The notes: generated from the letters alone by a model not told the origin. 64,000 nucleotides of DNA from Deltaproteobacteria bacterium (GCA_026388765.1 JAPLJC010000033.1:2408-66407); one strand, 5' to 3'; counted from the stretch's first letter, positions 13,715 through 29,969 are shown. Made by a program: numbers and translations.

Positions 13715-13796
13715 GATCTACCTCAAGGCGCCCCCGGGCGGCCCTGGCGGCCGTCTACTCCCCAGCAGATAGGCCCACCGCCCGGGTTTGCAGTCA

Positions 13797-14369: not shown

Positions 14370-14389
14370 CCGCAGCGCCCCGGCCTGGC

Positions 14390-14788
14390 TTATTGAGCTG
14401 CAGCCGGAGCGTTCGGTATAGGGTTTGCCGTCGGTATCGGAATGCCGGCGGCCTTGGCGTCCACCTGGACCTGCTGGGCCTGGAGTTTCAGTTGGTCAGC
14501 CACCCCCTTTTTGACGCAATATTGATCGCGCAGGCCGCCGCCCAGGGCCAGGGCGGTATCCGTGGCCACCACCGTGCTTTTCACCCGTTCATCCTGGGAT
14601 CCCGGCATGACTTCCTTGCCGGCGATGGCCGTGGCCGAGGCCACCACGGCGGGATAGAGGATTTCCAGGGTGGACATGGCCGCCTGCACCTGTTTCATGG
14701 CGTCGGGGTTCTCGCAGCAGCCGCCCAGCGCCAGCGCCAGGAGCACCAGCAGGATAACCGACCACAAATTCAGTGACTTTTTCATCAT
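14390..14788 (-). CDS. Phage-encoded lipoprotein (132 aa)
   Basis: MMKKSLNLWSVILLVLLALALGGC is a lipobox. A strong SD (GGGAGAAAG) precedes the ATG at 14788. Confidence 0.65.
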   Translation of the reverse strand: MMKKSLNLWSVILLVLLALALGGCCENPDAMKQVQAAMSTLEILYPAVVASATAIAGKEVMPGSQDERVKSTVVATDTALALGGGLRDQYCVKKGVADQLKLQAQQVQVDAKAAGIPIPTANPIPNAPAAAQ

Positions 14789-14925
14789 CTTTCTCCCGTG
14801 CAGAATGCCGTTTAAATTTTCCTTGAATCCATGCTTCCCATTTAAGCAAAAAATCAAGGCTTTGTGGGGGTTGAGTTCGCTTAAACTGACCGGGAGTTCG
14901 CTTAGATTTCAGCGCCGCCAAAAAA

Positions 14926-15105
14926 TCAGGGGACATCTTTTTTTTTAAAGGCCTCCACCGCCTCCCGGAAGACCCGGGTTTGGCGCTGGCCCGGATTTTC
15001 CGCCGTTAAGTCGCCCCGCTGGATTAACTTTTCTATCCAGCGCCGGCTAAACCCCAATTCCCGGGCCGCCACGTTCACCGGCATCGTGTCCCGCTTGCTC
15101 TCCAT
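14926..15105 (-). CDS. Small HTH DNA-binding protein (excisionase/AlpA-like)
   Basis: MESKRDTMPVNVAARELGFSRRWIEKLIQRGDL is HTH-like. The ATG at 15105 has a GGAG SD, whereas the track start at 15207 is a TTG. Confidence 0.6.
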   Translation of the reverse strand: MESKRDTMPVNVAARELGFSRRWIEKLIQRGDLTAENPGQRQTRVFREAVEAFKKKDVP

Positions 15106-15260
15106 CACCAACTCCAATCGAACCAGAGAACCGGCCAGACGCGGGTGTAATATTGCCGGTCTGAAAAAGCGCGGCCCACAGCGAGGACATAGTCCTGCAT
15201 TTTCCAAATCCCCAGGTTCGATGCCCTGATCTGACTGATAATCCAGATGTAATGGGTCAT
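15105..15260 (-). CDS. Trp-rich small ORF (51 aa), speculative
   Basis: Hand translation gives MTHYIWIISQIRASNLGIWKMQDYVLAVGRAFSDRQYYTRVWPVLWFDWSW. Its stop overlaps the next ATG (TGATG). Confidence 0.25.
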   Translation of the reverse strand: MTHYIWIISQIRASNLGIWKMQDYVLAVGRAFSDRQYYTRVWPVLWFDWSW

Positions 15261-15267
15261 AGGTCCC

Positions 15268-15659
15268 TCAAAAATAGCCCAGGTCCTCAGCCACTTTCCG
15301 GGTCATGGTCTTTCTGTCCCAAGGCCGTTTTTTCGGCTTTTTTAGGGCCGGCATTCCACTTTGCGGATCCTCGGAGGCCTCCCCCTGGGGGAGATCTCGC
15401 GTCGGCCGTCCCACTTCGCCCCGATCCGGCCCGGCGGGAACCGCCGCCATTGGACGGTCAGGCGCCCCCCCCCCCCCGCACTTTTCGACTCGAAGACCTC
15501 GCAAAGGCGGCTGAGGCCATCCAGCCACTTGCCCTGCACCTCCGGGGACCAGGCCGGGTCGAAGATGGGAAACTTGGCCAGCAATTGGTTGCGCCAGTCG
15601 TTGCCGCCTGGCGGCGGGGCCTTGACCGCTGCCTGATGGATGGCAATATTATTGGCCAC
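15268..15659 (-). pseudogene. Hypothetical phage gene split across two frames at a 13-nt homopolymer (C13 on plus, G13 on the coding strand)
   Basis: The N-terminal part is in the frame of ORF 15342-15659 (MANNIAIHQAAVK...FESKSAGGGG). The plausible C-terminus is in the frame of ORF 15268-15528 (...GGGGAPDRP...KKPKKRPWDRKTMTRKVAEDLGYF). The run lies at 15465-15477. Confidence 0.5.
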
Positions 15660-15695
15660 TCGTTTGGCACCCGAGGCCTTAGCTGATTCTTGAAG

Positions 15696-15727
15696 GCAAA
15701 TTTTGGGAATTATATACTTAACTCCCT
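15696..15727. repeat. Left arm of the ~32-bp inverted repeat flanking the AT-rich cassette
   Basis: GCAAATTTTGGGAATTATATACTTAACTCCCT compared with the reverse complement of 15994-16026, GCAAAATTTGGGGAATTATATACTTAACTCCCT: one mismatch and one indel. Confidence 0.85.
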
Positions 15728-15982
15728 TTTTAAAAATTCATCGAGACTGTTATATCCATCTTTCCATTCAACCGCTGAAAACCATTGGAATCCTCCCCTA
15801 TACATCCCTTGGCTTTCTGCCGTCATAAAAGAGCGCAGTTTATGGCGTATATTGGGGAAATTATGTTTTGTAAGTGCCATTTTACCTTTAGGAGTATTAA
15901 ATATTTCCTTTAGGGTCAAAGATGGTATATAACCGCGCCTCTTAATGTGTTTCAAAATCTCAACTTCATTATCTGTCAGCAT
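15710..15982 (-). CDS. AT-rich ORF (90 aa) inside the inverted-repeat cassette, unknown function
   Basis: ORF track entry. It is visibly AT-rich compared with its flanks. The N-terminus MLTDNEVEILKHIKRRG is vaguely HTH-like. Confidence 0.5.
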   Translation of the reverse strand: MLTDNEVEILKHIKRRGYIPSLTLKEIFNTPKGKMALTKHNFPNIRHKLRSFMTAESQGMYRGGFQWFSAVEWKDGYNSLDEFLKRELSI

Positions 15983-15991
15983 TTTTTGCCT

Positions 15992-16828
15992 TTAGGGAGT
16001 TAAGTATATAATTCCCCAAATTTTGCACCGGCCCAGATAATGCCTGACATTCCTGCCTCCCGGCTTGGATTGCACCTGCGGCTCTTCCGGATGGCGCGGG
16101 CACCGGGGCGCTTCCCGACTCAAATTTTCCGCCACACCTTCACCCTCCTCGGAGGCCGGGCCCGGCGCCGCCATGATCTCCTTGAGCCTTTCGGGCCTCA
16201 GGATTTTCCCGGCCTCTTTTTCCGATACTTGCACGGTCGACATGTCCTTTTTCTCCGCCGGTGCGGCCGGGACCGCAGGAATATTTTCAGGAATATTTTG
16301 AGCCCTTTTTGGTAAATCCGGCCCCACTTCGGCCTCATTTTTTTGGGGCGTGTTAATTTTTGCCACCTCATTTGTGGTCGCAAAAATTAACCCGGCCGCA
16401 CTTTCACCCCCTCCCCCTTGAGGGGGGAGGGCTGGGGTGGGGGTGGCGGCCGCTTTAGGCTTGACCATCGCGGCCCGGCGCTCGGCCTGCTCCCTGGCCA
16501 TCTCCAGCGGCCGATTGACGGCGCCGGCCAGGTTCAGGGGCCGGATCTTGACCTCAACGCCCTCCGGATGCCGCGCCTTGATCTCCCGGCCCTCCGGGCA
16601 GTCCCGGCAAAAGCTCGGGAAGCCGCCGGCCGCGGCCCGCTCCTGGTTGACCAGGCATTGGCGCTCGGAGATCCGGGTGGCCCCGGGGAACCGCGTGCAG
16701 TCGAACATCTGTGGCGCGGCCAGGGCCGCCACCAGCGCGGCCAGATCGACGCCGGGGTCAACCCTCGGCCCTTGATCCATCGCCGCCGCATAATGCGACC
16801 GCGGGCCCATGTCCCGCGCCTCAGTCAT
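15992..16828 (-). CDS. Hypothetical phage protein (278 aa), Cys-containing N-domain and low-complexity centre
   Basis: ORF track entry, part of the operon. Confidence 0.55.
   Translation of the reverse strand: MTEARDMGPRSHYAAAMDQGPRVDPGVDLAALVAALAAPQMFDCTRFPGATRISERQCLVNQERAAAGGFPSFCRDCPEGREIKARHPEGVEVKIRPLNLAGAVNRPLEMAREQAERRAAMVKPKAAATPTPALPPQGGGGESAAGLIFATTNEVAKINTPQKNEAEVGPDLPKRAQNIPENIPAVPAAPAEKKDMSTVQVSEKEAGKILRPERLKEIMAAPGPASEEGEGVAENLSREAPRCPRHPEEPQVQSKPGGRNVRHYLGRCKIWGIIYLTP
15994..16026. repeat. Right arm of the inverted repeat
   Basis: See the left arm. This arm also encodes the last residues and stop of ORF 15992-16828. Confidence 0.85.
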
Positions 16829-16849
16829 GGCAGTTCCGGGTACTCAGTC

Positions 16850-16987
16850 TCACGACTCCTCCCGCGGCCAACCCTCGTCACATTCGGGAGGTCTGGATCT
16901 TTTGGCCATCACCAGCAGGCAATAGATCACCAGCACGATGAAACCCAACACCGCCAGCGCCGCAATTTTGATGGCAAAAATAAACAT
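16850..16987 (-). CDS. Small membrane protein (45 aa), speculative
   Basis: Hand translation gives MFIFAIKIAALAVLGFIVLVIYCLLVMAKRSRPPECDEGWPREES. Confidence 0.3.
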   Translation of the reverse strand: MFIFAIKIAALAVLGFIVLVIYCLLVMAKRSRPPECDEGWPREES

Positions 16988-17032
16988 GGTTACCTACCTC
17001 CGTAGGGGCGACCTGTCGGGTCGCCCTGGCCG

Positions 17033-17182
17033 TTAGAGGAGCACCAGCACCACGCCCGCGGCGATGATCACCAGCACGGTGAGCGCCCCGTTGATCAGGG
17101 TCTCCCCCAACTGCCGCCGGTCCGCCGGGGTGCTCAAATATTCCCGGTTGAATTCCCGCAGATGTTCGGTGATATAGTCCAT
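17033..17182 (-). CDS. Small C-terminally anchored membrane protein (49 aa), speculative
   Basis: Hand translation gives MDYITEHLREFNREYLSTPADRRQLGETLINGALTVLVIIAAGVVLVLL. Confidence 0.35.
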   Translation of the reverse strand: MDYITEHLREFNREYLSTPADRRQLGETLINGALTVLVIIAAGVVLVLL

Positions 17183-17221
17183 CTCAGGCCTCCTGTGGAT
17201 GGCATAGGTTTCAAACCTGTG

Positions 17222-17716
17222 CTACTGTTCCTTGACCTCGTAGGCGTATGTCTCTTTCGTCTCGCGCCGGGTGCCGATGAGGGCCAGGGCCGCGTCGGGC
17301 CATTCGTTTTTGTCCTCCAGCACGTCCCAATCCACCGCGGCGGTGCGCCGGATGGCCTCCTCAAAGCCATATTTCATCAGGTTGGCCAGGACATCCACCT
17401 TGCGGGGTTTGACCACGTAGTCCTCTCGGGCGTAGAGCAGGGCGCCGTGCGGCAGGTCCAGGGAATAGGACTCCAGGATCACCTCTGGAAATAAGTCGGC
17501 CCGGTGCGCCTTCATGAAATCCTTCAATTCCTTATCGAGGTAAGCCACCCGGCGCTGTTGCCAGTCGATCTTGCCCTGGGAGGCCTGAAAGGCCCGCAGC
17601 TCTTCGGCCAACTTGGCCTGGAGGCGGTCCAACTCCACCTGCGCCTCCCGGATCGCCGCCAATTGCCGGTCCGCCTCGGCCTGGATCGGCGAGGCGAAGT
17701 ATTTTTTGGTGCTCAT
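17222..17716 (-). CDS. gam: Host-nuclease inhibitor Gam (Mu Gam family)
   Basis: 164 aa with an N-terminal coiled-coil (AEADRQLAAIREAQVELDRLQAKLAEEL). Size and architecture match Mu Gam, and it lies in the early region of a Mu-like phage. Confidence 0.7.
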   Translation of the reverse strand: MSTKKYFASPIQAEADRQLAAIREAQVELDRLQAKLAEELRAFQASQGKIDWQQRRVAYLDKELKDFMKAHRADLFPEVILESYSLDLPHGALLYAREDYVVKPRKVDVLANLMKYGFEEAIRRTAAVDWDVLEDKNEWPDAALALIGTRRETKETYAYEVKEQ

Positions 17717-18132
17717 GCCTCAGTCTCCTGCATCTCCAGGGCCAACTGACCGGCGTAGTCGGCGGCGTTCTTATTATTCAGCCGGCCCAGTCTGCCGATG
17801 GCCTTCTTCAACTGCCGCTCCTTGCGCGCCAAATATTCCCGGCGCTCGGAATCGGAGGAGGGCAGGTAGTAGCCCGGCCGGATGTTGCAGCAGGAGGCGG
17901 CGATGAACACTGCCTCGGGCCCATACTTGACCTCTTCGATCAGCTTCCGGAGTTCCCGGCAGCCGGTCATCTTGTTGCCTTCGTAGGGCCGCAGGAAGAC
18001 CTGCTCGAACAGCTCCCCGGCCCCGATGGCCCGGGCCTTGCCGATGTGCCGGGTCATCGCCAGGAGCAGCCGGCTCTTGGCCTGCTCCCAATCCAGTTCC
18101 TGTTCCATCTTTTTGAGCTTTCTTTCCGTCAT
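17713..18132 (-). CDS. Hypothetical early protein
   Basis: 139-aa ORF that overlaps gam by 4 nt. Confidence 0.55.
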   Translation of the reverse strand: MTERKLKKMEQELDWEQAKSRLLLAMTRHIGKARAIGAGELFEQVFLRPYEGNKMTGCRELRKLIEEVKYGPEAVFIAASCCNIRPGYYLPSSDSERREYLARKERQLKKAIGRLGRLNNKNAADYAGQLALEMQETEA

Positions 18133-18195
18133 GAAACCCTCCTTCGTGGCACAGGCTTCCAGCCCGTGGACCTCAACCTTCTCCAGCCTGTGCCC

Positions 18196-18366
18196 TTAAT
18201 AAAGCCCCTTCTTCTTCGCCAGCCATTCGGGCATAGTCACCATCACCGTGCCGTCGGCCTGATGCACCACGGCAATCTGGCTCCGGGGCAGATAGACCTT
18301 GAGCCCGGTGCAGCCGTCATCGAACAGCACGGCCACTCGGTCCCCGGCTCGACGATCCGCCCCCAC
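18196..18366 (-). CDS. Small hypothetical protein (56 aa from a GTG), possibly frameshifted
   Basis: The C-terminus ...AVLFDDGCTGLKVYLPRSQIAVVHQADGTVMVTMPEWLAKKKGLY looks genuine. The upstream ATG at 18386 is in a different frame, just before a G5 run. Confidence 0.3.
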   Translation of the reverse strand: MGADRRAGDRVAVLFDDGCTGLKVYLPRSQIAVVHQADGTVMVTMPEWLAKKKGLY

Positions 18367-18389
18367 AGTTCGACGTCTTCACTCATGGC

Positions 18390-18578
18390 CTACCCTACCT
18401 GTACCTTGGGTTTGATCGGCAGCGGGCGACCCAGCGGTCTTACTTCCCTGGGAGACCAGCGGTAATATGACCGGCCGCAACACGGGCAGACATAGACCTT
18501 CTGGTCCCGTTCCTTCGCCTCATCAACTCCCACCAGGACGCCACAGTCGCACTCAAATGACTTCTTGTCGGCCATCAT
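18390..18578 (-). CDS. Zinc-ribbon protein (62 aa)
   Basis: MMADKKSFECDCG...VCPCCGRSYY carries two Cys pairs. A strong SD (AAGGAGGG) is present, and the start overlaps the upstream stop. Confidence 0.55.
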   Translation of the reverse strand: MMADKKSFECDCGVLVGVDEAKERDQKVYVCPCCGRSYYRWSPREVRPLGRPLPIKPKVQVG

Positions 18579-18757
18579 CCCTCCTTCGGCTGGCTGGTCA
18601 GGTGCCAGCGCCCGCACCGCCAGCAGTGGTAGGCCCGCTCGGGCAGGTAATCCCGGCGGGAGTTCGCCGCGATCCGGGCGCAAGCCATCATGGCCCGGCG
18701 CTGGCTGCAAAACCCCACCTTGCCGGTGGCGCATTTACGGTTGCTGCGATTCGACAT
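18575..18757 (-). CDS. Small zinc-finger protein with a C-terminal CWRCGRWHLTS motif
   Basis: 60 aa. The motif ...RAYHCWRCGRWHLTSQ is common in small phage proteins. Confidence 0.6.
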   Translation of the reverse strand: MSNRSNRKCATGKVGFCSQRRAMMACARIAANSRRDYLPERAYHCWRCGRWHLTSQPKEG

Positions 18758-19282
18758 ACTCTTCTGCCTTGGTGGGGCGGCCGTCCCCGGTGGCGCAGGC
18801 GTCCCCGCCTGCGGACCTTTTAGCGGCCGAGACGGCCGCCCTACGCGCCCGCGTCTCCGGCCGGGTCTGCGGCGGGTCGCCGGCCTGCTTGCGCACCTCG
18901 TAAATCAAGGCGATCTGCACCCGGTGCAGCATCGCCGGCGAGAGCCAGCGCCAGACCACCCTATCCAGCTTTTCCAGCCCGAGCATCCGCCGGGCGATGG
19001 CCGCAGCGTAGGCCCAATCGGCTCCCAGCGCCGCCAGCAGTTTGCCGATGGCGGCCAGGTGGGCCTGCTTGAGCCGCTGGACCGCCCGGATCTGCGGCCC
19101 CTGTGAACCATTCTTGGGCCGGTAGACGAAACCGCAGGCCGCAAAATGTCCTTGCTACTGGCCACCCCGAAGCGCTCCTTCATCTCCGCCTTGGTGATGG
19201 CCACCCCCGCCTTTTGCAAGGTGGTGATGGCGGTGTGGAAGAGCCGCACCTGCTCCGGCTGGATGCGGAAGTGGGGTTTCAT
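18735..19282 (-). pseudogene. gemA: GemA / Mu gp16-like (DUF1018-type) gene with a frameshift near 19143-19146
   Basis: The N-terminal half is in the frame of ORF 18905-19294 (MKPHFRIQPEQVRLFHTAITTLQKAGV...FGVASSKDIL). The conserved C-terminal half (AACGFVYRPKNGSQGPQIRAVQRLKQAHLAAIGKLLAALGADWAYAAAIARRM...) is in another frame, with no start codon before residue M at 18986. Confidence 0.6.
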
Positions 19283-19410
19283 GGCGTTACCCATTTTTTG
19301 ATGATCTGCTTCATCTTTTTAAGGATGTGGAGTTCCCAGCCAATAAGGATGAGGACAACAAGGCAACCCATAGCGACGCCATAACTAATGATTTCGGTGA
19401 TGAGGGTCAT
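19279..19410 (-). CDS. Small membrane protein (43 aa), speculative
   Basis: Hand translation gives MTLITEIISYGVAMGCLVVLILIGWELHILKKMKQIIKKWVTP. It has ATGA overlaps at both ends and lies in a lower-GC patch. Confidence 0.35.
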   Translation of the reverse strand: MTLITEIISYGVAMGCLVVLILIGWELHILKKMKQIIKKWVTP

Positions 19411-19634
19411 GGCTTCCTTGATCTCTCATACTCATAGGCGCCCCTGCCAAACATGATCAGGGTGCCAAAAAGTTTTCGGGCCCTTTTGCATTCCGGGTGG
19501 TCACAAAATGAGCCGACGCACTCTTTGGCCACTCCGGCAAGGTTATCGGGCCCGAGAGGGCTTAGGGGCGGCGGCGGCCAGAGGTTAAAGTCCAACCCTG
19601 GCCTGAGCCTTTTGGGTTTCGGGTCGGGTTTCAT
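19407..19634 (-). CDS. Hypothetical protein
   Basis: 75-aa ORF with overlapping starts and stops. Confidence 0.45.
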   Translation of the reverse strand: MKPDPKPKRLRPGLDFNLWPPPPLSPLGPDNLAGVAKECVGSFCDHPECKRARKLFGTLIMFGRGAYEYERSRKP

Positions 19635-19831
19635 GGCCGGCAGACCGAAGACGGAGGACCGGAGACCGGGGCTTCCGCCTCCATGTCCTCGAAATACGGC
19701 TGAAAGACATCCTCGTCCAGCCGCAGCATCAGGCCGCCGCAGGCGGCGCAGATGGCCGTGTGGTCATCCAACCCGGCCACCCGCTGGTCCCGGCCGCCGC
19801 AATCCACGCACTGGTATTCGTAAGTCGGCAT
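19631..19831 (-). CDS. FmdB-family CxxC zinc-ribbon protein
   Basis: The N-terminus MPTYEYQCVDCG plus a second CAACG pair is the hallmark of the FmdB/Zn-ribbon regulatory family. Confidence 0.65.
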   Translation of the reverse strand: MPTYEYQCVDCGGRDQRVAGLDDHTAICAACGGLMLRLDEDVFQPYFEDMEAEAPVSGPPSSVCRP

Positions 19832-19879
19832 AAAACCTCCTGGGGTGAGGGGGCGGGCCGCCCGGCCCGCCCCGCCCGG

Positions 19880-20083
19880 TTAAGTGGCCGGGATCAGCCG
19901 GTTCAGAATCTTGGCCGCCTGCCTGATCTTCCGGACCACGTCCGCTAAAATCAGGGTCATGCCGAACAGGTCATTCTCCGAAAGCACCAGGTTGCCCTCC
20001 GTGGCCAGGAGGGTATTGGCCAATTCCAACTTGCAGGCCAGGTGCTCCAGGGCGTCCAGGGCGTCGGCCCGCGGGTATCTCAT
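19880..20083 (-). CDS. Hypothetical protein
   Basis: 67-aa ORF whose start overlaps the upstream stop. Confidence 0.45.
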   Translation of the reverse strand: MRYPRADALDALEHLACKLELANTLLATEGNLVLSENDLFGMTLILADVVRKIRQAAKILNRLIPAT

Positions 20084-20802
20084 GACTCGCCCGCCGCCGG
20101 GCCGGGCAGGGCTTCCTGCCTGACCCCGGCGCTGATCTGCGCCAATTCACGGGCGAATTCGTCCCGCACCAGCTTGCGCCGTTTGTTCTGGAGCACTTTG
20201 CCGAATTTGAATCCCAGGGATTCCAGGCGGCGTTGGATTTCCTGCGCCTTTTCCCTGGAGATTCCCAGGAGCAGGCCGGTTTCTTTGAAAGTCAGATACT
20301 GTCGCCGGTAAAACCTGACCCAGGCCAGGATGTCGTGGTCCAACTTGCCCGCCAGGATCTCCGTGGCCAGGCAGAAACCTTTGTGGACTCCCCGGGCTTC
20401 GGCTTCCTGGAGGCTGGCCTCCATCCTGGGCGCCGCCTGGCGCAACTTGTCTTGAAATTTCTCGACTTTCTCCGGCAGTTTCGCCAGCCATAGACGGAAG
20501 GTCTTTGACTTTTGGGTGCGGGCGAACATGGAGATCAGATTACAGCCGGTTCGGTCGAAGAGTCGGGTAATACCTACACCTTTTGATGTGCATAACCCCG
20601 TTTTGAGGGTCAAGCTATGCGGCTCTAATTCTTCCTTATTTCTCTGGAAGAAGGTGTTAACCGCCTTGGCCGGATTCGCCATACCGAGGCACAGGCCCAC
20701 GTCTTTGGAGGTCAAGTAGTCTTTACCCTCGATCACAAAAAGGCTGACCTGATTACTGTCGAACATCTCGGTTCTGGCCTGTAATTGCTCGTTATTACTC
20801 AT
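20080..20802 (-). CDS. Bro-N domain protein (antirepressor-like) with a C-terminal HTH
   Basis: The N-terminus ...VSLFVIEGKDYLTSKDVGLCLGMANPAKAVNTFFQRN... fits the Bro-N pattern. The C-terminus LTFKETGLLLGISREKAQEIQRRL is HTH-like. Confidence 0.65.
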   Translation of the reverse strand: MSNNEQLQARTEMFDSNQVSLFVIEGKDYLTSKDVGLCLGMANPAKAVNTFFQRNKEELEPHSLTLKTGLCTSKGVGITRLFDRTGCNLISMFARTQKSKTFRLWLAKLPEKVEKFQDKLRQAAPRMEASLQEAEARGVHKGFCLATEILAGKLDHDILAWVRFYRRQYLTFKETGLLLGISREKAQEIQRRLESLGFKFGKVLQNKRRKLVRDEFARELAQISAGVRQEALPGPAAGES

Positions 20803-20839
20803 GGTTTTGTTCTCCTTTGGATGTTTTTAGCTTGGGCAT

Positions 20840-20934
20840 AAAAAAAGCACGGCCCTGACGAGCGGTGCTAAGGGACACCCGAAGGAGAACCCTCCCGGAC
20901 CTTGCGGACACCGGGCCACTCGCCAGAGCCGTGC
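20840..20934 (-). terminator. Intrinsic terminator-like structure: a 16-bp basal helix enclosing a branched loop, followed by U7
   Basis: In minus sense, 5'-GCACGGCUCUGGCGAG (20934-20919) pairs with CUCGUCAGGGCCGUGC (20862-20847), using 2 G:U pairs, and is followed by UUUUUUU (20846-20840). In plus sense the same positions are A:C mismatches. Confidence 0.55.
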
Positions 20935-21021
20935 GCTCTGGTCCATGAAAAACAAAACCCCCTTTTGCGCCCAAGATTGGGTCGCAAGGCCGGGGCAGCC
21001 CCTTTGGGTGTTCTTAGCACC
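20840..21021 (-). ncRNA. Candidate structured leader/regulatory RNA between the remA-like gene and the Bro-N gene
   Basis: A long-range helix pairs 21021-21013 with 20872-20864 (9 bp) and 21011-21006 with 20880-20875 (6 bp). There are internal hairpins, including one with a GCAA tetraloop. The topology crosses the terminator helix, which suggests alternative folds. Confidence 0.3.
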
Positions 21022-21055
21022 TTCAGCATGCCCGGTTTGGGGGATATTTGTCAAG

Positions 21056-21346
21056 TTATTTCTCACTCCCGCCAGCCTCCGCCACCAGCCTCTCACGGAG
21101 CACCGTCGCCGCCAGGGCCGCCAGGATGACATGGTTGCTGTCGGTGATGATGACCGCCTTAGTGCGGCGCCCGGCGTTGGCGATCAAGAGGCGCCCGGAC
21201 GCAACCGCTTCGGCCCGCAGGCGCTTGGCCGGCGCCGTCTCGGGCGCCAAGATCGCCACCACCCGATTCCAGTTGAGAAAATTGCCGTAACCGATATGGA
21301 CCAGGGTGCCCCGGTTCTTGGCCCGCTGGCCGTGTTTAAAGTTCAT
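21056..21346 (-). CDS. remA: RemA / DUF370-family DNA-binding protein homologue
   Basis: LVHIGYGNFLNWNRVVAILAPETAPAKRLRAEAVASGRLLIANAGRRTKAVIITDSNHVILAALAATVLRERL aligns by eye along its whole length with B. subtilis RemA (INIGFGN...SPESAPIKR...GRRTRAV...DSDHVILSA). Confidence 0.85.
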   Translation of the reverse strand: MNFKHGQRAKNRGTLVHIGYGNFLNWNRVVAILAPETAPAKRLRAEAVASGRLLIANAGRRTKAVIITDSNHVILAALAATVLRERLVAEAGGSEK

Positions 21347-21780
21347 CGCCGACCCTCCTCATAACGCCTCCGCGCCTGGGCCACGGCCCGCAGCACTTCC
21401 CGCTCGTAAGCCCGGTTGCCGGTGCCGTTATAGGCCCGCACCGCCAGGCGCAGATCGCCCTGATACTTCTTGAGCAGTCGGGCCAGGACCCGGGCGCCGC
21501 CGTGGATGTTCTCCCGCGGGTTCCAGGGGTCCACCCCGAGGAACTTCGCCGTGTCCCGGTCCAACTGCATGAGGCCGATGCAGCGGCCCCGGCCGGAAGT
21601 GGCGGCGGGATCACCGCGGCTCTCGATGGCCAGCACGCCCCAAATGATGCAGGGATCGACTCCGGTCTCCCCGGCTGCCTGCAGGGTGTAGGCCCAATAT
21701 TCCAGCGGCAGGGCCAGGTTGCCGATCTGCGGCGCCGGCATCAGGGTCAAGGCCAGGAACATGGCGATGGCGGAGGTCAA
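21343..21780 (-). CDS. Lytic transglycosylase (SLT domain)
   Basis: LAIESRGDP (catalytic ES motif), ...GLMQL... and ...AYNGTGN. Confidence 0.85.
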   Translation of the reverse strand: MTSAIAMFLALTLMPAPQIGNLALPLEYWAYTLQAAGETGVDPCIIWGVLAIESRGDPAATSGRGRCIGLMQLDRDTAKFLGVDPWNPRENIHGGARVLARLLKKYQGDLRLAVRAYNGTGNRAYEREVLRAVAQARRRYEEGRR

Positions 21781-22109
21781 TTGAGCCCCGCCTTCGCCAC
21801 GCTCGGCCGGGGCGTGGCCGGGTCCAGGATCAGGGCGGCCATCACCCGGGCCGCCGTGGTGGTGTCCCGCTGAGGCTTATTCTTCCGCAGGCTTTCCACC
21901 TGGAACTCCAGTAGTTTGAACCGGAGCTGCTCGGGAGAGACCGCCGCCAGGGGATCGCCGAGGGCCCTGAGCAGTTCATGGGCCTCCCAAACCAGATCCA
22001 GCTCCCTCCGCCGCGCTTTCTCCCAGGACTTCCAGGCCTTAAAGGGCTCAATGAGGTCCTGTATTAACTCTTTGCCGATCTGCCAATATTTCTTGATTTT
22101 GGCGATCAT
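21777..22109 (-). CDS. Hypothetical early protein
   Basis: 110-aa ORF with 4-nt overlaps. Confidence 0.5.
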   Translation of the reverse strand: MIAKIKKYWQIGKELIQDLIEPFKAWKSWEKARRRELDLVWEAHELLRALGDPLAAVSPEQLRFKLLEFQVESLRKNKPQRDTTTAARVMAALILDPATPRPSVAKAGLN

Positions 22110-22357
22110 GGCTCGTTTCTCACCGAAAAGAGGAATTGGTTGTTTATCCAGGTCTTTTCCAGTTCTCCCGCCGCGGTCATGTCCTCCAAGGCGTGGTAAA
22201 TCAGACCGATGGCCCCGGGGCCGATAAAGTTCAGCTCCCGGCCGATCCGGGCCGCCGAGGCCATGAGCAGATCACCCACGGCCTGTTTGATCTGGTTGCG
22301 GGTCACTCCGGGCACCGGCATAGCCAGAGGCGGAGGAGGGGGTAGTTTTGCCATCAA
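22106..22357 (-). CDS. Hypothetical early protein
   Basis: 83-aa ORF with 4-nt overlaps. Confidence 0.5.
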   Translation of the reverse strand: MMAKLPPPPPLAMPVPGVTRNQIKQAVGDLLMASAARIGRELNFIGPGAIGLIYHALEDMTAAGELEKTWINNQFLFSVRNEP

Positions 22358-22587
22358 ATTATCTCCGCCGCCAACTTGTCGGCCCGGCGGGTGGGACAGC
22401 CGCGGCTGTGCCGGACCTGGCCGTCCTCGGTCTCGTTGGCCGCTTTAGCTCCCGGCGTGCCGCTGCAAAAGACGCAGTATTCGCCGCTGGTGTAATCCCC
22501 GCCCTCTTGAATCAGCCGATCCACCAGCCGCCGATAGCGCCGCAGCAGGGACCGCCGCCGGGACATTTCTGTGGGCTTGGCCATCAC
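22354..22587 (-). CDS. Hypothetical early protein (Cys pairs)
   Basis: 77-aa ORF containing CVFC...GC. Confidence 0.5.
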   Translation of the reverse strand: MMAKPTEMSRRRSLLRRYRRLVDRLIQEGGDYTSGEYCVFCSGTPGAKAANETEDGQVRHSRGCPTRRADKLAAEII

Positions 22588-22784
22588 TTCTCACCCAACT
22601 CGCTCACCGCGGCAACCGGAATAATCACCACCGGGGCTGGCAGGGCCGCCCGCTTATTGATGGCGCCGAAAAATTGCACGGTGTTGTCCACCCCGGACAA
22701 ATTACCGACCCGGCCCACCAGGATGAAGGTTTCCCCCTCAAATTCCGCTTCCCCGAGATCCGACAAGAGTTCTTCCACCTGCAT
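22584..22784 (-). CDS. Hypothetical early protein
   Basis: 66-aa ORF. An SD (AAGGAGGGG) precedes the ATG at 22784. Confidence 0.5.
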   Translation of the reverse strand: MQVEELLSDLGEAEFEGETFILVGRVGNLSGVDNTVQFFGAINKRAALPAPVVIIPVAAVSELGEK

Positions 22785-22802
22785 CGACCCCTCCTTTGCC
22801 TT

Positions 22803-22836
22803 TACTGACTACTGGCTACTGACTACTGGTACTGCC
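22803..22836 (-). repeat. Tandem heptamer array, copy C
   Basis: TACTGAC TACTGGC TACTGAC TACTGGT ACTGCC. It starts 1 nt from the stop at 22838-22840 and is followed on the minus strand by AAGGCAAAGGAGGGGTCGATG. Confidence 0.85.
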
Positions 22837-22837
22837 T

Positions 22838-23434
22838 TCATTCCTCCAGCCGGCTCACCGCCAGCCGCGCCTGGGCGATGGCCCGCAGGCTCTCGCCGTT
22901 TTTCCCCGGACACTCCTGGGCCACCCGGGCAAAGGCCCCGTCCAGCGAGGCCAGGGCTTCTTGCTGCCGCCGCCGGGCCCGCAGTTGCCGCAGGCGTTCG
23001 CCGTTGCTGTCCGCCGGCGGCTTCGGCCCGAGATCCTTGATCAGGCGATAGCGGCCCGGCTGGCCCTTTCCGGCCTCGTTCCGCACCAGACCCAGGCGCA
23101 GCATGGACTTGTACCAATCCCGGACCGTATGCGGGCTGGCCCCGGATTGCAGGCTCATCTCCTCCGCCGTCAGCACCAGGTGGATGCGCTGCAGATTCCA
23201 CATGATCTCCTTGAGCTCCGGCCGCTCCTCCCGCCCCAGCCGGCGCCAGCGCCCCGGCCCCAGGTGCTCCAGCTCGCCGTATTTGGCCAGGTCCTTGAGC
23301 GCCCCGCCGAGCCGGTTGCGGCGCTCGTCGGTGCACAATTCCAGGAGGTCGCCGGCCTGGCGGCTGGTGAAGGTCTGCCCCACCGGAAAGATGGCGATCA
23401 CCTGGCGCAACCGGTCGTTGAAGGAACCTTTCAT
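22838..23434 (-). CDS. Hypothetical early protein with winged-helix-like segments
   Basis: 198-aa ORF immediately downstream of the MuB-like gene. Confidence 0.55.
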   Translation of the reverse strand: MKGSFNDRLRQVIAIFPVGQTFTSRQAGDLLELCTDERRNRLGGALKDLAKYGELEHLGPGRWRRLGREERPELKEIMWNLQRIHLVLTAEEMSLQSGASPHTVRDWYKSMLRLGLVRNEAGKGQPGRYRLIKDLGPKPPADSNGERLRQLRARRRQQEALASLDGAFARVAQECPGKNGESLRAIAQARLAVSRLEE

Positions 23435-24225
23435 CTGCCGCCCGCCGGCTCCTCGTCCAGAATCAGCCGGGCCAGGTCCTCGGTGATCCGGCTGGTCTTT
23501 TTGGCATTGGCCAGGCTCACCAGTTTGACGGTGCGGTTGCGGATCATGCGCCAGTCGCCGCCATACGGGGCCTGGTTCAGGAGCAAGGCCGCGGCCGGCT
23601 CGATCTTGAGCTCAGCCGACTTCCAACCGTAATTCATGATGGCCTGGGCCTCCACCGCCTCGAACCGCACTCCGCCCAGACTCCGGGACCACAGCCGGGA
23701 GTTCGCCCGCATGACTTCATCCATCTTGAGTTCGCCGATGAGGATGAAGGCGGCGCCGGAGAGGTCGGCCAGGTCGCGCATCAGATCCAGGTGCTTAGGG
23801 ATGCGGTCGGCTTCATCAATGAAGACGACGCGCTGTTTGGCCGGCCGTTGCAGCAGATGTTCTATGGCCCAGTCGATGCAGCGGCTGCGGTTGCGCTGCG
23901 GGGTTTCCTGGCCCAATTCCCGGCAAAGCCGCATCAGGAAGGGCAAGGTGCTGTTCTTCCAGTCCTCCCGCACCCGGATATGCGGCAACCTATGGGCCGC
24001 GGCGTGGATGGCCGAGGTGTCGGTTTTGCCTTCGCCGGCCGGACCCCAAATATAGTCGAGACAACCCTTGCCCGCCATCTGGGCGATGGTCTCCATCCGG
24101 GCCAGGAACTCCTGCTCGTTGCGGGTCTCCACCCAGGCCGGGGCGAATTTTAGGCACTTCCAGGGCTCCGGGGCCTTGGCCTCGGGCCGGATCTGCGTCA
24201 CGGCGCTGCTTTTTTCTGTTGCCAT
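23431..24225 (-). CDS. MuB-like transposition ATPase (AAA+)
   Basis: Walker A (GPAGEGKT) and Walker B (VVFIDEAD). The gene lies directly downstream of the transposase. Confidence 0.8.
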   Translation of the reverse strand: MATEKSSAVTQIRPEAKAPEPWKCLKFAPAWVETRNEQEFLARMETIAQMAGKGCLDYIWGPAGEGKTDTSAIHAAAHRLPHIRVREDWKNSTLPFLMRLCRELGQETPQRNRSRCIDWAIEHLLQRPAKQRVVFIDEADRIPKHLDLMRDLADLSGAAFILIGELKMDEVMRANSRLWSRSLGGVRFEAVEAQAIMNYGWKSAELKIEPAAALLLNQAPYGGDWRMIRNRTVKLVSLANAKKTSRITEDLARLILDEEPAGGR

Positions 24226-24369
24226 TCAGACCTCCGTAAAGCCGTTACAAGTTTCCCCGGGCGCCATAGCCCTGTCGTAAAAAGGCGATTCATAGTTATT
24301 GCAAGTGCCAAACATTTCACACTCTTCTGCCTCTTGCCAATGCTCGCAGAATTCGCAGGTTTCCTTCAC
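24226..24369 (-). CDS. Small Cys-rich ORF (47 aa) between the transposase and the ATPase, speculative
   Basis: The GTG start overlaps the transposase stop (GTGA). It begins KETCEFCEHW...GTCNN...ETCNG and lies in a lower-GC patch. Confidence 0.3.
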   Translation of the reverse strand: MKETCEFCEHWQEAEECEMFGTCNNYESPFYDRAMAPGETCNGFTEV

Positions 24370-26708
24370 TCCCACACCTCCGTCGCCGCCTGCAGTTTCA
24401 CTGCCTCGAACCACGCCTCCAGGCGCCGGTAACTATCGCTCTTCTCGAACCAGTGCCTGGCCTGCCGCTGTTCCGGGTTGAGTTTGCCGCCCCGGGCCAG
24501 GGCCTTAATGATGGCCACGTATTCCTGCACCTCGGGCGACTCCTTCAAGTCCTCCAGGACCTGCTGCCGCTGCCGGGCGATGTTGGCCAGCTCCGCCGCT
24601 CCGTCCTCGATCTTCCGGTCCCGGGCCGCATCGGGCACCAGCCGCAGGGCGGCCCGGTCGTCATAGTCCTGAAGTTCCCGGTAAGCCCCGCCCTGGTAAT
24701 CCGCCGCCCCGAAACCGGCCACGGCCACCTTGGGCTTGGGCATAACCGCCAGTTGCCGGCCGTAATCCATCGGACCGCACAACCCCTCGGCCAGCTTGCG
24801 GTTGCCCTTGTGCGCCCGGACGATGCGCGCCTTGGCCTTGATATGCTCCTCCAGGTCCAGGCCGCCCCGCAGGCCGTTGTGCACCGTGCAGATGAAAGGC
24901 CCGGGCTGGCCGTTTTCCAGGCATTCCCAGATGGTGCCCCGGGTGACGTCGGCCAGCGACGGCTTGAAAATCACCCGCTTGCCCTGGAAATTCTGCACCC
25001 GCTCCATCCCCGCGGCGCTGTCCGCCATATAGGCGCCCAGCATCCCGCCCCAACTGAAGCCGGAGTTGTAGGTGCGCTCGAAGGCCGGCGCCATCAGGGT
25101 GTCCAGGTGCTCGGGGGAGGCGATGCGGGGCGCCCGCTTGGGCGAGTTGGCCTGGCGTTCCCACACCAGGCCGCTGCGGCCGAGCCGGCAGTCCTTGAAG
25201 CGGTGCGTCTCGGCCCGGTAGACCTTCTCCAGCCAGTCGGTGACCACCGCCTTCAATTCCGCCGCCGTGGCCCCGCAGGAGAGCTTCACCGGGTTCTTCT
25301 GGTGGTAAAAGACCTCCTGGAAGCGCTGAAATTCGTCGATGCGCTTGCGCTGCACCGGGTTGTGGCCCACGTACCAGGGCAGGGCCTCGAACAGCATCCG
25401 GGCCATCGAGCCGAAAAAGGTCTCGACGTGGGGTTTCTGCCAGGGGGCGTAGGCGTCGCAGTCCCGCTGGGCGATGCCCATCTGGGCGCAGGCCGTGCGG
25501 ATGTGCTGGCTCTTGAAGATCATGCCCCGGTCGCCGATGATCCACTCCGGTACACCCCAGGCCAGGAACCCCTGGCGAAACAACTTGGCCACCGTCAGTG
25601 AGGTGGCGTGCTTCTCCACTTCGATGATGGCGTCCCGGCTGAAGATGTCCACCGCCGCCAGGATCTCGTGGCGGCCGTCGGCCAGCATGACGTCGGCCGG
25701 GGTGGCGTCGATCTCCCAACGCTCGCCGAAATAGCCGGCCTGTTCGCCGGAGAGGCCGCCCTTGGGCTGAAATTGCGCCCGCCAGAACGACGGCAGGCAG
25801 ATGGCCGCCAGCTTCTCTTGTTCCTTATAGAGGAAGGACTCCAAAAACTTGGTGAAGTGGCCGTAGTGGGGGAGGTGCGTGTGCTGTGCGAACTCCGCCT
25901 TCAGCCGCCGGTAGATCAGGGCCTTGTTGCACTCCAGCCTGGTAGCACAGGCATCCCTGCCTGTGGAACTTTTAGGCCACAACTTCACCTGGCCCTTCCA
26001 GAACAGGGCGGTGATGTAGGCCTTCATGTCCGGGGTCATGGTCTGGACGCCCAGGCCCGGCTTCTGATAAGTCCCGTCCGCCTGGAGGCCGTAGCCCCGC
26101 CCCAGGGCGCACAGCCCCGGCGAGTTCTCCTGCTTCGCCGCCCACTTGTAGGACGTTTGCCAGGAGACCTTTTTAATATTCGCCAGGACCTCGGGGATCT
26201 CGTGGGGCTCGAACCCCAGGTCGGCTAATTCTTGATAAACCGCCGCGCTTGGCTCCGACCTTTGCTTTTTCCTGGCCCCTGACCACTGCCACCTTAGCAC
26301 CGCGTTCAGCCGGCCGTAAAATTCCTTCAAGGCCGCGGTCTTGCCTCCTGCCCGGCTCAGACAAAAATTCGCCCCTGCCCGCAACACCGCCGTCCGGGCC
26401 AGGGCTACCTTCATTTCCTTTGGCGTCAGCCTCATGATTTTGGGGGCCTCTTTGACCCGGGCCGCCATTGCCCCTTCCTGCACCATCTGCCAGCCCGTCG
26501 CCGTATCCCGGCGCACCTCCCAGGCCGTGATAGCCTGGCGCACATCCTCAGGCAGGGAGATATAGAGGTAGAGTTTCTTGATGCCGCCCCGGCCTCTACC
26601 CTTTTCGGTACGAAATAACCATTTTTCAGCAAAGGCCCGCACTTTCACCGCCTGGGGCGTTATTCCCATAGCCTCTGAAATCTCGGCCACTGTATAAAGT
26701 TCCTTCAT
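24366..26708 (-). CDS. MuA-like DDE transposase
   Basis: 780 aa with an N-terminal HTH (YTVAEISEAMGITPQAVKVR). The rve-type core shows WEIDATPADV (D), IIGDRGMIFKS (D) and QKPHVETFF (E). Confidence 0.9.
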   Translation of the reverse strand: MKELYTVAEISEAMGITPQAVKVRAFAEKWLFRTEKGRGRGGIKKLYLYISLPEDVRQAITAWEVRRDTATGWQMVQEGAMAARVKEAPKIMRLTPKEMKVALARTAVLRAGANFCLSRAGGKTAALKEFYGRLNAVLRWQWSGARKKQRSEPSAAVYQELADLGFEPHEIPEVLANIKKVSWQTSYKWAAKQENSPGLCALGRGYGLQADGTYQKPGLGVQTMTPDMKAYITALFWKGQVKLWPKSSTGRDACATRLECNKALIYRRLKAEFAQHTHLPHYGHFTKFLESFLYKEQEKLAAICLPSFWRAQFQPKGGLSGEQAGYFGERWEIDATPADVMLADGRHEILAAVDIFSRDAIIEVEKHATSLTVAKLFRQGFLAWGVPEWIIGDRGMIFKSQHIRTACAQMGIAQRDCDAYAPWQKPHVETFFGSMARMLFEALPWYVGHNPVQRKRIDEFQRFQEVFYHQKNPVKLSCGATAAELKAVVTDWLEKVYRAETHRFKDCRLGRSGLVWERQANSPKRAPRIASPEHLDTLMAPAFERTYNSGFSWGGMLGAYMADSAAGMERVQNFQGKRVIFKPSLADVTRGTIWECLENGQPGPFICTVHNGLRGGLDLEEHIKAKARIVRAHKGNRKLAEGLCGPMDYGRQLAVMPKPKVAVAGFGAADYQGGAYRELQDYDDRAALRLVPDAARDRKIEDGAAELANIARQRQQVLEDLKESPEVQEYVAIIKALARGGKLNPEQRQARHWFEKSDSYRRLEAWFEAVKLQAATEVWE

Positions 26709-27181
26709 TGGACCGGGTGCTCCTGGACCGGCCAGTCTTCTTCGGCCGCGCGAACCTCGACTTCCTCCACCGAGATATTCAGGGCTTCGGCGATTTCGGC
26801 CGCCGTATAGAACTCTTTCCGCTTAATCAGGATTCCCAACTCCTTGATTATGGGACACACCTCCATACTCTCGATGGCGGCCCATCTCAGCAGCACTATT
26901 TGCAGCCGGCGGGGAAACTCGCGCTCCCGCATGAAGGCTCTGATATTTTCCTTGTCCATTTCGCCGACGCAGTAGGCCTCCAAAATCAGACCGGTCTCTT
27001 CGTCCCCGCCCAAATACTCCAGCGCCTCCGAGAGGCCCACGTTGTCCTTAGTCCGGATGCGCAACAGCACCAGGGGACACCAGGATTCTTCCACGACTGC
27101 GGTGATCGCCTCGAATAAACTGGCCGGGTTCAGGTCCGCCCCTGCCAATCGGCTGCCGCCATCCTTTTCTGTTGTGGTCAC
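26705..27181 (-). CDS. Hypothetical early protein with a C-terminal HTH
   Basis: FYTAAEIAEALNISVEEVEVR. It overlaps the transposase start. Confidence 0.55.
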   Translation of the reverse strand: MTTTEKDGGSRLAGADLNPASLFEAITAVVEESWCPLVLLRIRTKDNVGLSEALEYLGGDEETGLILEAYCVGEMDKENIRAFMREREFPRRLQIVLLRWAAIESMEVCPIIKELGILIKRKEFYTAAEIAEALNISVEEVEVRAAEEDWPVQEHPVQ

Positions 27182-27184
27182 AAC

Positions 27185-27670
27185 TCACCCCTTCATCGAC
27201 CCATTGAAGAGTTGCAGCAGCTGCTCCCGCCGCCGCACCTCCCGTTGTTGTTCCTTGATATCCGCCTTCATTCGGTTGATCTCGCCCTTCAGGGCTTCCG
27301 GCCCGGCAAAGGCGAACAGGTCCCGCTTCCGGTTCAGTACCAGCAGCGCTCCATCGTCCGCCGTGGCCGCGTCGAAGGCCGGCAGATACTCCGCCGGCAC
27401 ATGCCGCTCCTTGGAGTCCGCCGTCCAACTGTCAATCATTTCTTTGGTGATTTGCGTGTTCAACAGGTGGGACATCTGGCCTGCCACTTCGTAGCGGGAC
27501 CGCGGGCATTTCTTCAAGGCCAGGTTCAGGGCCGCCTTCAAATCGGTGACACAAGCCATTGACCCAGCCCTGTCACCTTGCTCTGTTTGCGCCCGCTTCA
27601 ACTCGTCGAAGATCGAGAGTTGCCGGGGCGAGTCTATTCTTTTTGCCAATTTAGACATTGACACTTGCAA
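27185..27670 (-). CDS. Hypothetical early protein (coiled-coil C-terminus)
   Basis: 161-aa ORF, the second gene of the early operon. Confidence 0.55.
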   Translation of the reverse strand: MQVSMSKLAKRIDSPRQLSIFDELKRAQTEQGDRAGSMACVTDLKAALNLALKKCPRSRYEVAGQMSHLLNTQITKEMIDSWTADSKERHVPAEYLPAFDAATADDGALLVLNRKRDLFAFAGPEALKGEINRMKADIKEQQREVRRREQLLQLFNGSMKG

Positions 27671-27691
27671 CCCTATTGCATTACAAAGGGG

Positions 27692-27916
27692 TTAATGGGC
27701 GTTGGCCCGCCACCTCGGTTTCGGTTCGTATTCCGGGAAGACCTCCCGCAACTTCAAATCCAAGGTGTCGGCCAGGGCCGCCATGATCCTGAGGCTCACC
27801 AGCTTGCGGTGGGCCACCAGGTACACCGCATTGGCGGATACTCCGATCTTTTTGGCCACCGCCCGCATGGAGGTGCCCTTTTTAAGCAGTTCGATACGGA
27901 TTTCTAAGGCATTCAT
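27692..27916 (-). CDS. Ner/Cro-like HTH regulator, first gene of the early operon
   Basis: 74 aa. SMRAVAKKIGVSANAVYLV is HTH-like. It is divergent from the repressor across the operator region. Confidence 0.65.
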   Translation of the reverse strand: MNALEIRIELLKKGTSMRAVAKKIGVSANAVYLVAHRKLVSLRIMAALADTLDLKLREVFPEYEPKPRWRANAH

Positions 27917-28012
27917 GGGACCACCTCTTAATTATTTGACTGTTAAAACCATGTATAAATCAATAAATTGATTGTTGCAAGCAAAAAATTGCGTTATCCA
28001 TCAATTTTTTAA

Positions 28013-28121
28013 TTGCTAAGTCGTTTTTTTGCCTAAACCTTTATTAATAATTATATCACTTAGTTAAGGCACTTTTTTAGGTTGCTAAGTCATTTGCTAA
28101 GTCGAGCCTGCGACTTAGCAA
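28013..28121. promoter_or_regulatory. Operator array: TTGCTAAGTC x3 direct (28013-22, 28082-91, 28094-103) plus an inverted copy GACTTAGCAA (28112-21)
   Basis: Exact 10-mers read in the AT-rich divergent region. The last direct copy and the inverted copy form a palindrome with an 8-bp spacer. Confidence 0.6.
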
Positions 28122-28135
28122 CCAAAGTTGGCCCC

Positions 28136-29213: not shown

Positions 29214-29270
29214 AGTAATACACAGATTGGCCTCCGGCCGACCTAATTCATAAACAGGAGGATTAATTAA

Positions 29271-29818: not shown

Positions 29819-29823
29819 AACCT

Positions 29824-29964: not shown

Positions 29965-29969
29965 ATCCC

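Follow-up and report, generated by a model that had tools for sequence, protein, structure and literature searches.

Why does a gene of the RemA family lie among the early genes of a transposable phage? Among bacterial regulators, RemA belongs to the few for which wrapping of DNA round a protein ring is thought to be the mode of action. Work on it has been confined to Bacillus, even though housekeeping genes of the family are widespread. The gene discussed here, called remA throughout, encodes a protein of 96 amino acids (aa) on the minus strand of a 64,000-nt stretch of DNA from Deltaproteobacteria bacterium (GCA_026388765.1 JAPLJC010000033.1:2408-66407), which was analysed as a whole and is referred to below as the window. 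The initial annotation, made from the sequence alone, had recognised the family by eye and had proposed that the protein, encoded where phage Mu has its middle-operon activator Mor, acts as a transcriptional switch or manipulates host genes under RemA control. The reading at which we arrive, and to which we give a probability of about 0.55, is that a Mu-like phage lineage has kept a genuine RemA in its early operon, where it would serve as a DNA-wrapping architectural regulator of transcription.

Family membership and genomic setting of the protein

The assignment of the 96-aa protein to the RemA/DUF370 family is secure. A Pfam search matched residues 15-87 to the whole of the PF04025 profile (positions 1-73 of 73) with an E-value of 7.6e-24 and 84.1 bits, the gathering score being 26 bits, which bears out the family call made by eye. 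The protein also passed the NCBIfam equivalog PRK04323 (92.9 bits against a cutoff of 87) and did not reach the cutoff of 140 set for NF046064, the equivalog of the Bacillus matrix and biofilm regulator (81.5 bits). When the sequences of the PDB were searched with phmmer, the sole match was RemA of Geobacillus thermodenitrificans (GtRemA, 7BM2), which aligned without gaps over residues 15-90 (E 5e-17). In this alignment, R60, R61 and K63 fall on the DNA-binding residues R50, R51 and R53 of GtRemA, and R28 and D69 fall on the ring-interface residues R18 and D59. Mutations R50A and R51A in GtRemA abolish DNA binding, promoter activation and biofilm formation, and R18 touches D59 of the neighbouring subunit and thereby sets the octameric state (Hoffmann et al., 2021; PMC8481266). 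The AlphaFold2 model of the monomer had RemA chains as its only significant matches in the PDB (probability 1.0, E 1e-5).

Compared with the RemA (YlzA) proteins of B. subtilis and G. thermodenitrificans (7BM2, 7BME, 7P1W; PMC8481266), the window protein therefore has the same full-profile domain at ~45-50% identity and keeps the R50/R51 pair, R18 and D59, whereas R53 is replaced by K. It differs from them in its score below the NF046064 cutoff and in a basic N-terminal extension of 13-14 aa; ring formation and an activator function are predicted for it. The extension (residues 1-14, MNFKHGQRAKNRG) was not seen in housekeeping RemA. A HMMER search over 1.84 billion cluster representatives returned 1098 clusters at E ≤ 1e-3, and among the best 150 of these 1098 representatives an extension of the MNFK(H/D)G type was common only to P0002, P0010, P0011 and P0053. 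A degenerate pattern for the MNFKHG N-terminus gave 19 matches in IMG/VR, none of which encodes a RemA. No PHROG v4 family matched the window RemA at E ≤ 0.01, and no PADLOC model matched remA or seven other prophage genes at the same threshold. The representative search also returned two proteins, P0008 (261 aa) and P0009 (531 aa), with 3 or 7 tandem RemA-like domains per chain; such a 'single chain' may amount to a complete or partial ring with its units linked covalently.

The setting of the gene is that of a phage. Positions 1 to ~28500 of the window are those of a transposable, Mu-like prophage whose genes read along the minus strand, and the rve transposase, the MuB-like ATPase, the Gam-like protein, the portal, the Mu-F-like protein and the terminase encoded there support the prophage proposed for the locus. 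The genes for MuA and MuB (23431-26708) head the minus-strand string of genes that contains remA, with several small genes between MuB and a lytic transglycosylase (SLT) gene. In the late part, genes for lysis are followed by those for the terminase, the portal, a Mu-F-like protein and a fusion of head protease and capsid protein. The SLT gene directly precedes remA, as had been noticed, and its TGA stop codon overlaps the ATG of remA (ATGA). A GGAGG Shine-Dalgarno motif is found at 21354-21358, 7 nt upstream of the start, and a simple consensus scan gave no promoter-like site in 19700-21500. Because of the overlap, the Shine-Dalgarno motif and the outcome of the promoter scan, remA is placed in the early polycistron, and it is translationally coupled to the early gene before it. 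Its position between the SLT gene and a cassette led by a Bro-N anti-repressor-like gene confirms that it lies outside the usual gmk neighbourhood; Bacillus and Geobacillus have the order yicC-remA-gmk-rpoZ instead. Homologues of yicC or gmk were not found at any phage remA locus, and the window has a single copy of remA.

Recurrence of RemA in phages

Phage-borne RemA is rare but recurrent. The gene was found at 12 distinct phage loci including the window, and their proteins fall into at least four sequence groups by distance. Loci L003-L007 came from a motif scan of IMG/VR, L098 and L105 from contigs selected by MuB, L216 from a scan for the leader described below, and L001, L013-16 and L017 from protein look-ups. 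A scan of IMG/VR with the window protein as single query returned nothing, and it took an alignment-based scan to recover the five loci L003-L007. Homologues of MuB, Gam, GemA or terminase are carried by L004, L005, L006, L098, L105 and L216, and the arrangement of L013-16 was seen in 17 contigs from several samples. The survey of Mu-like phages suggested at the outset thus shows that RemA homologues recur, but among the Mu-like viral contigs picked by MuB similarity remA is present in only 2 of 28 (L098 and L105).

Two of the loci belong to non-Mu phages, L003 and L007, and in both remA lies directly upstream of a rusA resolvase gene. The former encodes SbcC-like, DUF5131 and portal-MuF proteins and has remA ~2.4 kb upstream of the gene for the terminase large subunit; the latter encodes an SNF2-methylase and DnaB_2. 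Their two RemA proteins cluster by distance with RemAs of Firmicutes hosts, implying two or more independent acquisitions from hosts.

Outside these loci the family is overwhelmingly chromosomal. At the best 80 of more than 587 genome matches and the best 80 of more than 563 metagenome matches, yicC and/or gmk adjoined remA in every case (160 of 160), unlike in the window. The sampled RemAs come from Desulfobacterota, Nitrospirota, Thermodesulfobacteriota, Atribacterota and Clostridia and share 43-59% identity with the window protein; housekeeping PRK04323 proteins of the first three phyla are the closest non-phage sequences among the matches listed. A tblastn search of 50,697 deposited phage records gave eight matches, all of them 'UNVERIFIED Bacteriophage sp.' contigs of human faecal or gut origin (MT835528, MT835556, MT835604, MT835883, MT836046, MT837031, MT838072 and MT838601; L009-L012 and L129-L132). 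These were rejected as phage examples because the yicC-remA-gmk block that they carry is bacterial DNA, and they are probably bacterial contigs misfiled as phage, so that tblastn recovered no genuine phage RemA among the 50,697 records. No paper on a phage-encoded RemA was found in the literature searched, an absence that is no proof that none exists.

The gene is maintained in its lineage. The exact window protein is encoded on 14 contigs from several sequencing runs. Between the window and its closest relative, the Joint Genome Institute (JGI) metagenome contig L001, the ratio of non-synonymous to synonymous substitution rates (dN/dS) is 0.45 for remA, 0.39 for MuA, 0.40 for Gam and 0.31 for SLT; remA is thus under purifying selection, in the range of bona fide phage genes.

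At six Mu-like loci, a protein of 195-233 aa with an N-terminal CPACG Zn-ribbon (MKLRCPACGAEI...) is encoded beside remA or within ~0.7 kb of it. The L098 copy had no Pfam match, and a homologue was not noticed in the window.

The place of remA and the structured leader behind it

Does remA stand where Mu has mor? In Mu the genes run gam ... gemA, mor, then the promoter Pm with a terminator, C and lys. The initial annotation took remA for the last gene of the early operon, a description that fails here, as genes resembling GemA and Gam, both of which Mu expresses early, are found downstream of it. In L001, whose RemA is 78% identical and whose gene order is the same, the series is rve, AAA_22, SLT, RemA, Zn_ribbon_8, GemA, HTH_38, a sigma-70-like protein and Gam, and remA overlaps the Zn-ribbon gene directly, with no spacer or terminator between the two. 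The gene follows SLT in the window and L001 and Gam in L006, L098 and L216; in L013-16 it starts 4 nt after MuB and overlaps the next gene, a different Zn-ribbon gene. GemA is a steadier neighbour, since remA lies less than 1 kb upstream of it in L001, L004, L005, L006 and L105, and also in the window once the Bro-N cassette is discounted. In the window, L001 and L098, the slot directly after GemA, which is that of Mor in Mu, is occupied by a gene for a small Cys-rich protein.

The statement that the window has no recognisable Mor/C-like gene stood up to the searches. Among 27 prophage open reading frames (ORFs) scanned with Pfam, none matched Mor/C (PF08765), and phmmer searches of all ORFs of the window and the loci gave nothing significant with Mu Mor and Mu C (best E 0.06-0.7) or with Mu Ner. 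Nor did any other recognised late activator turn up in the window. RemA itself was rejected as a member of the Mor/C family, having neither a PF08765 match nor a C-terminal helix-turn-helix (HTH), nor any relationship to it in sequence or fold. What RemA and Mor/C have in common is that they are small DNA-binding proteins, in the case of RemA by prediction, and that transposable phages carry their genes in the early region. Of the Mor position that had been ascribed to remA, one part holds: no further ORF separates it, in this window, from a promoter-like motif and two terminators, much as mor in Mu is followed by Pm and a terminator. The arrangement is not conserved in relatives, and the adjacency to the terminators is due to the insertion of a cassette. 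Relatives have remA at different places among the early genes, and here GemA and Gam lie downstream of it, whereas Mor has GemA directly before it; remA was therefore also rejected as a positional equivalent of Mor.

The cassette, a 1.27-kb segment that L001 lacks, is made up of the last codons of remA (its 3' tail), a structured leader, the Bro-N gene and a gene for a 67-aa protein. As RNA, the 253-nt spacer between remA and the Bro-N gene (20803-21055) has a minimum free energy of -109.8 kcal/mol (z = -4.08; none of 200 shuffled sequences was as stable), and two hairpins followed by U-runs, T1 and T2, account for the structured terminator region that had been seen after remA. Its interpretation as a divider of the early genes from the next block is not supported, because it is part of the cassette absent from L001 and has GemA and Gam beyond it. 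A TTGACA hexamer opens the leader and is kept in the copies of L005, L013, L216, L231 and L105. At 18 nt downstream of it, the other copies have CACAAT or CAAAAT and the window has a weaker CATGCT; the site is not called as a promoter by the simple consensus scan. T1 is conserved across five phages with a compensatory change of an AU to a GC pair (columns 95:115), and T2 is likewise conserved and shows compensatory changes, among them one from CG to UA at columns 160:229. The ribosome-binding site of the Bro-N gene follows ~25 nt downstream of T2.

This element of ~250 nt is found directly upstream of Bro-N with 72-75% nucleotide identity in L005, L013-15, L216 and L231, and partially in L105 and L227. 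The Bro-N proteins adjoining it share 32-41% aa identity and are less conserved than the element. The leader, the Bro-N gene and the 67-aa gene occur together in L005, L013, L216 and L231, and in L005, L013 and L231 the element and Bro-N head a co-oriented block that runs into the terminase genes. All five element-bearing phages that could be assessed (the window, L005, L013, L216 and L105) have remA, and the element was found in none of 26 Mu-like contigs without remA. An Rfam scan of 13000-28500 at E ≤ 1 gave no match. A 16-mer scan of IMG/VR for the leader gave 23 matches, only five of which are true extended copies, and the leader motif GGGCTGCCCC shows no enrichment in the rest of the window, with 13 matches where 21 would be expected.

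The late leader of phage lambda, PR'-qut-tR' with its 6S RNA, is an antitermination-controlled leader. The element behind remA resembles it in the succession of a promoter, a short structured transcript, strong intrinsic terminators and a gene block, and it may represent a leader of the antitermination type or else a small RNA. It differs from the lambda leader in having no sequence similarity to it and no Rfam match, and no Q-like protein was identified. Coordinates are collected in Table 1.

Table 1. Features of the window and of related phage loci
Feature	Contig	Coordinates	Strand	Remarks
remA-like gene	window	21056-21346	-	ATG start, 96 aa; RemA-like domain at residues 15-87
SLT lytic transglycosylase gene	window	21343-21780	-	PF01464, E 1.6e-15; immediately upstream of remA
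MuB-like ATPase gene	window	23431-24225	-	phrog_296, 1e-22; AAA_22, 1e-11
MuA-like rve DDE transposase gene	window	24366-26708	-	phrog_310, 6e-52
Divergent repressor and Ner-like pair flanking an AT-rich control region	window	~27930-28060		
TTGACA, -35-like hexamer	window	21049-21054	-	starts 2 nt after the remA stop; from alignments
T1, terminator-like branched hairpin	window	20948-21043	-	closed by CCCCC/GGGGG, then UUUUGUUUUU; fold -39 kcal/mol
T2, terminator-like long G+C-rich hairpin	window	20840-20934	-	-57 kcal/mol, then U7
Segment of 1.27 kb absent from L001	window	19831-21097	-	blastn, L001 against the window
Bro-N anti-repressor-like gene	window	20080-20802	-	phrog_5060, 2e-11; Pfam Bro-N below threshold (24.3 bits against 25.6)
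67-aa gene	window	19880-20083	-	
Zn-ribbon (FmdB-type) gene	window	19631-19831	-	66 aa; PF09723, E 1.5e-8
GemA-like gene	window	18573-19294	-	tblastn with L001 GemA
Small Cys-rich protein gene	window	18390-18734		directly after GemA; homologues in L001 and L098
Mu Gam-like gene	window	17222-17716	-	phrog_491, E 2.6e-14; 3.3 kb downstream of remA
HTH_17 DNA-binding protein gene	window	14926-15207	-	PF12728, E 2.3e-6; head of the lysis/late region
Element copy	window	20803-21058	-	
Element copy	L005	3870-4125		
Element copy	L013	14590-14820		
Element copy	L105	10688-10804		partial
Element copy	L216	6606-6880	-	
Element copy	L231	12797-13080	-	
CPACG protein gene	L005	114-701		
CPACG protein gene	L006	8026-8613		
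CPACG protein gene	L017	1667-2368		
CPACG protein gene	L098	11603-12262		
CPACG protein gene	L105	6712-7353		
CPACG protein gene	L216	7860-8474		
AT-rich islands from the phased 7-mer scan	window	27930-28060; 15690-16030; 14780-14860; 7650-7850		
AT-rich insert	window	15698-16023		326 bp
ORF in the AT-rich insert	window	15710-15982	-	90 aa
Stretches of G+C 0.45-0.48	window	28000-30000; 32000-34000		beyond the repressor gene
ORFs beyond the repressor gene	window	28521-29213; 29271-29648; 29970-30296; 30372-31127	+	

Two further features of the window were recorded. The AT-rich insert, in a phage of 62% G+C, is bounded by 30-nt inverted repeats that are 97% complementary, contains an ORF without a Pfam match and cuts into the 3' end of a gene for 278 aa; it looks like a small mobile element or an insertion resembling a miniature inverted-repeat transposable element. 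Beyond the repressor gene, the G+C content falls to the values given in Table 1, against ~0.60-0.65 elsewhere, and the plus-strand ORFs there may be cargo of the phage end or part of another island.

Possible uses of a phage RemA

If the phage uses its RemA as proposed, the protein would be produced from the early lytic transcript once the phage infects or is induced, and would be silent in the lysogen. It would assemble into rings like those of RemA, which are octameric or 16-meric, and each ring would bind and wrap DNA as an architectural regulator of transcription, with the DNA of the phage, of the host or of both as its target. There is a parallel in TF1 of phage SPO1, a phage-encoded HU-family homologue of host architectural DNA-binding proteins. 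By analogy, each phage would encode a diverged version of some nucleoid or architectural protein of the host and use it in its development, although TF1 has the HU fold and the RemA ring is related to LytTR. Control of middle or late transcription of the phage is, we think, the single most likely use, and the conserved promoter and double-terminator leader after remA offers a candidate target. It was ranked first because Mor/C is absent, RemA is a known activator and remA lies directly upstream of rusA in L003 and L007; action on the host RemA regulon comes next, then a part in transposition or recombination, and last a passenger without a role. A more specific version, in which the RemA ring is the developmental switch of Mu-like phages without Mor/C and acts on TTGACA and the double-terminator leader, appears unlikely to us. 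The ring would then wrap promoter-proximal DNA and bring about initiation, or would enable read-through of T1 and T2, and the unit led by Bro-N would be turned on and would run into the late genes in L005, L013 and L231.

Several observations weigh against a regulatory role of RemA in these phages. The residues on which ring and DNA binding are predicted to depend are not kept everywhere, as RemA of L216 has E, P and K at the positions of R18, R51 and D59 and that of P0002 has H at the position of R50, and the AlphaFold2 monomer of the window protein is only moderate (a predicted local distance difference test score, pLDDT, of 68 and a template-modelling score of 0.37-0.47 against 7BM2). RemA sites in B. 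subtilis are AT-rich, weakly conserved 7-mers with a phasing of 10 bp, and a scan of the window for such phased 7-mers was not discriminating, recovering AT-rich islands only. Other proteins might govern the late genes. The HTH_17 gene, with homologues in the same position in L098, L013 and L216, is an alternative candidate for a late regulator, and L001 encodes between the GemA block and Gam (9450-10016) a 188-aa sigma-70-like protein with Sigma70_r2/r4, a candidate phage sigma factor for late genes there; the corresponding segment is missing from the window (compare 18133-18192). In L003 and L007, no known late activator was found when the stretch from rusA to the terminase gene was scanned with Pfam, which counts neither for nor against RemA in that role there. 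As for the leader, L004, L006 and L098 have remA but no detectable element, and the co-occurrence of remA with it, confounded by the relatedness of the phages, is suggestive.

The state of this prophage copy adds to the same side. Its TerL gene (9738-11300, minus strand) has an in-frame TAG at 10710-10712, which splits it into ORFs of 196 and 317 aa at a site where three homologues have Gln (DDLENDQNV); no in-frame stop was seen in the other late genes. The TAG could be a CAG-to-TAG nonsense mutation in a defective prophage or an assembly error, and recoding of amber to Gln is less likely. The GemA-like gene carries a frameshift: tblastn with GemA of L001, which is intact at 174 aa and recognised as GemA by Pfam, matches the window in two different frames. 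The copy may thus be defective or decaying, or the consensus of the metagenome-assembled genome (MAG) may contain errors.

The alternatives to a regulator of phage genes draw in part on the same observations. A phage RemA might bind the RemA sites of the host or form mixed or poisoned rings with host subunits, and genes under the control of host RemA (for matrix, envelope, osmoprotection or other functions) would then be rewired during infection. Such a use would fit the nearest non-phage relatives of the protein among the matches listed, housekeeping copies from Desulfobacterota, Nitrospirota and related phyla, the broad group of the MAG host. It would also fit the retention of the interface residues R28 and D69 and of the DNA-binding patch, as well as the Firmicutes affinity of the L003 and L007 proteins, with the two or more captures from hosts that it implies. 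The neighbourhood of GemA in most Mu-like loci points the same way, as GemA of Mu is reported to modulate host gene expression and DNA topology. We nevertheless regard hijacking of the host regulon as a tentative and rather doubtful alternative, as the window itself holds one remA copy only, RemA targets are known from Bacillus only, an identity of ~50% may be too low for co-assembly, and the basic N-terminal extension suggests a specialised function and not mimicry. A ring that wraps or bends phage DNA for transpososome assembly, replicative transposition or recombination would take the part that host HU and IHF play in Mu. It would account for the place of remA right behind MuB in L013-16, for its company of transposition and DNA-end genes (MuA, MuB and Gam) in all Mu-like loci and for its position beside the RusA resolvase gene, where the replication and recombination module ends, in L003 and L007. 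The low frequency of remA among the MuB-selected contigs nevertheless means that it is not needed for transposition in general, the gene also occurs in phages that do not transpose, and the characterised member of the family is a transcription activator; a cofactor of this kind is thus improbable, even more so than the switch acting on the leader.

The least probable of the explanations considered, and one that we give little credence, is that remA is a recently captured host gene that has no role in the phage and is possibly retained in a decaying prophage. The stop codon in TerL and the frameshift in GemA would be in keeping with decay, as the overwhelmingly chromosomal distribution of the family would be with a recent capture. 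A mere passenger would not be expected, however, at 12 distinct phage loci in at least four sequence groups, nor with a dN/dS comparable to those of MuA and Gam, nor translationally coupled inside an operon, nor with a lineage-specific N-terminal extension common to several clusters of 50% identity, nor as an identical protein on 14 contigs from several sequencing runs.

In conclusion, a phage regulatory protein is the best hypothesis for the product of remA, and the replacement of Mor by position is not supported. Phages have recruited the RemA wrapper in several divergent Mu-like lineages and, independently, in rusA-containing phages of Firmicutes type, which brings a known protein family into a new biological setting, the early operons of phages. 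The promoter and double-terminator leader is a separate, previously uncatalogued regulatory element that merits study of its own. A small phage genome with few candidate targets provides a compact natural system in which the action of RemA rings on DNA and transcription can be probed, and the protein is a candidate explanation for the timing of gene expression in transposable phages that lack Mor/C. If the ring does act as a switch on the leader, this would be a new mechanism of temporal control in phages, exerted through a histone-like wrapper, and would give the RemA family a biological role not seen before.

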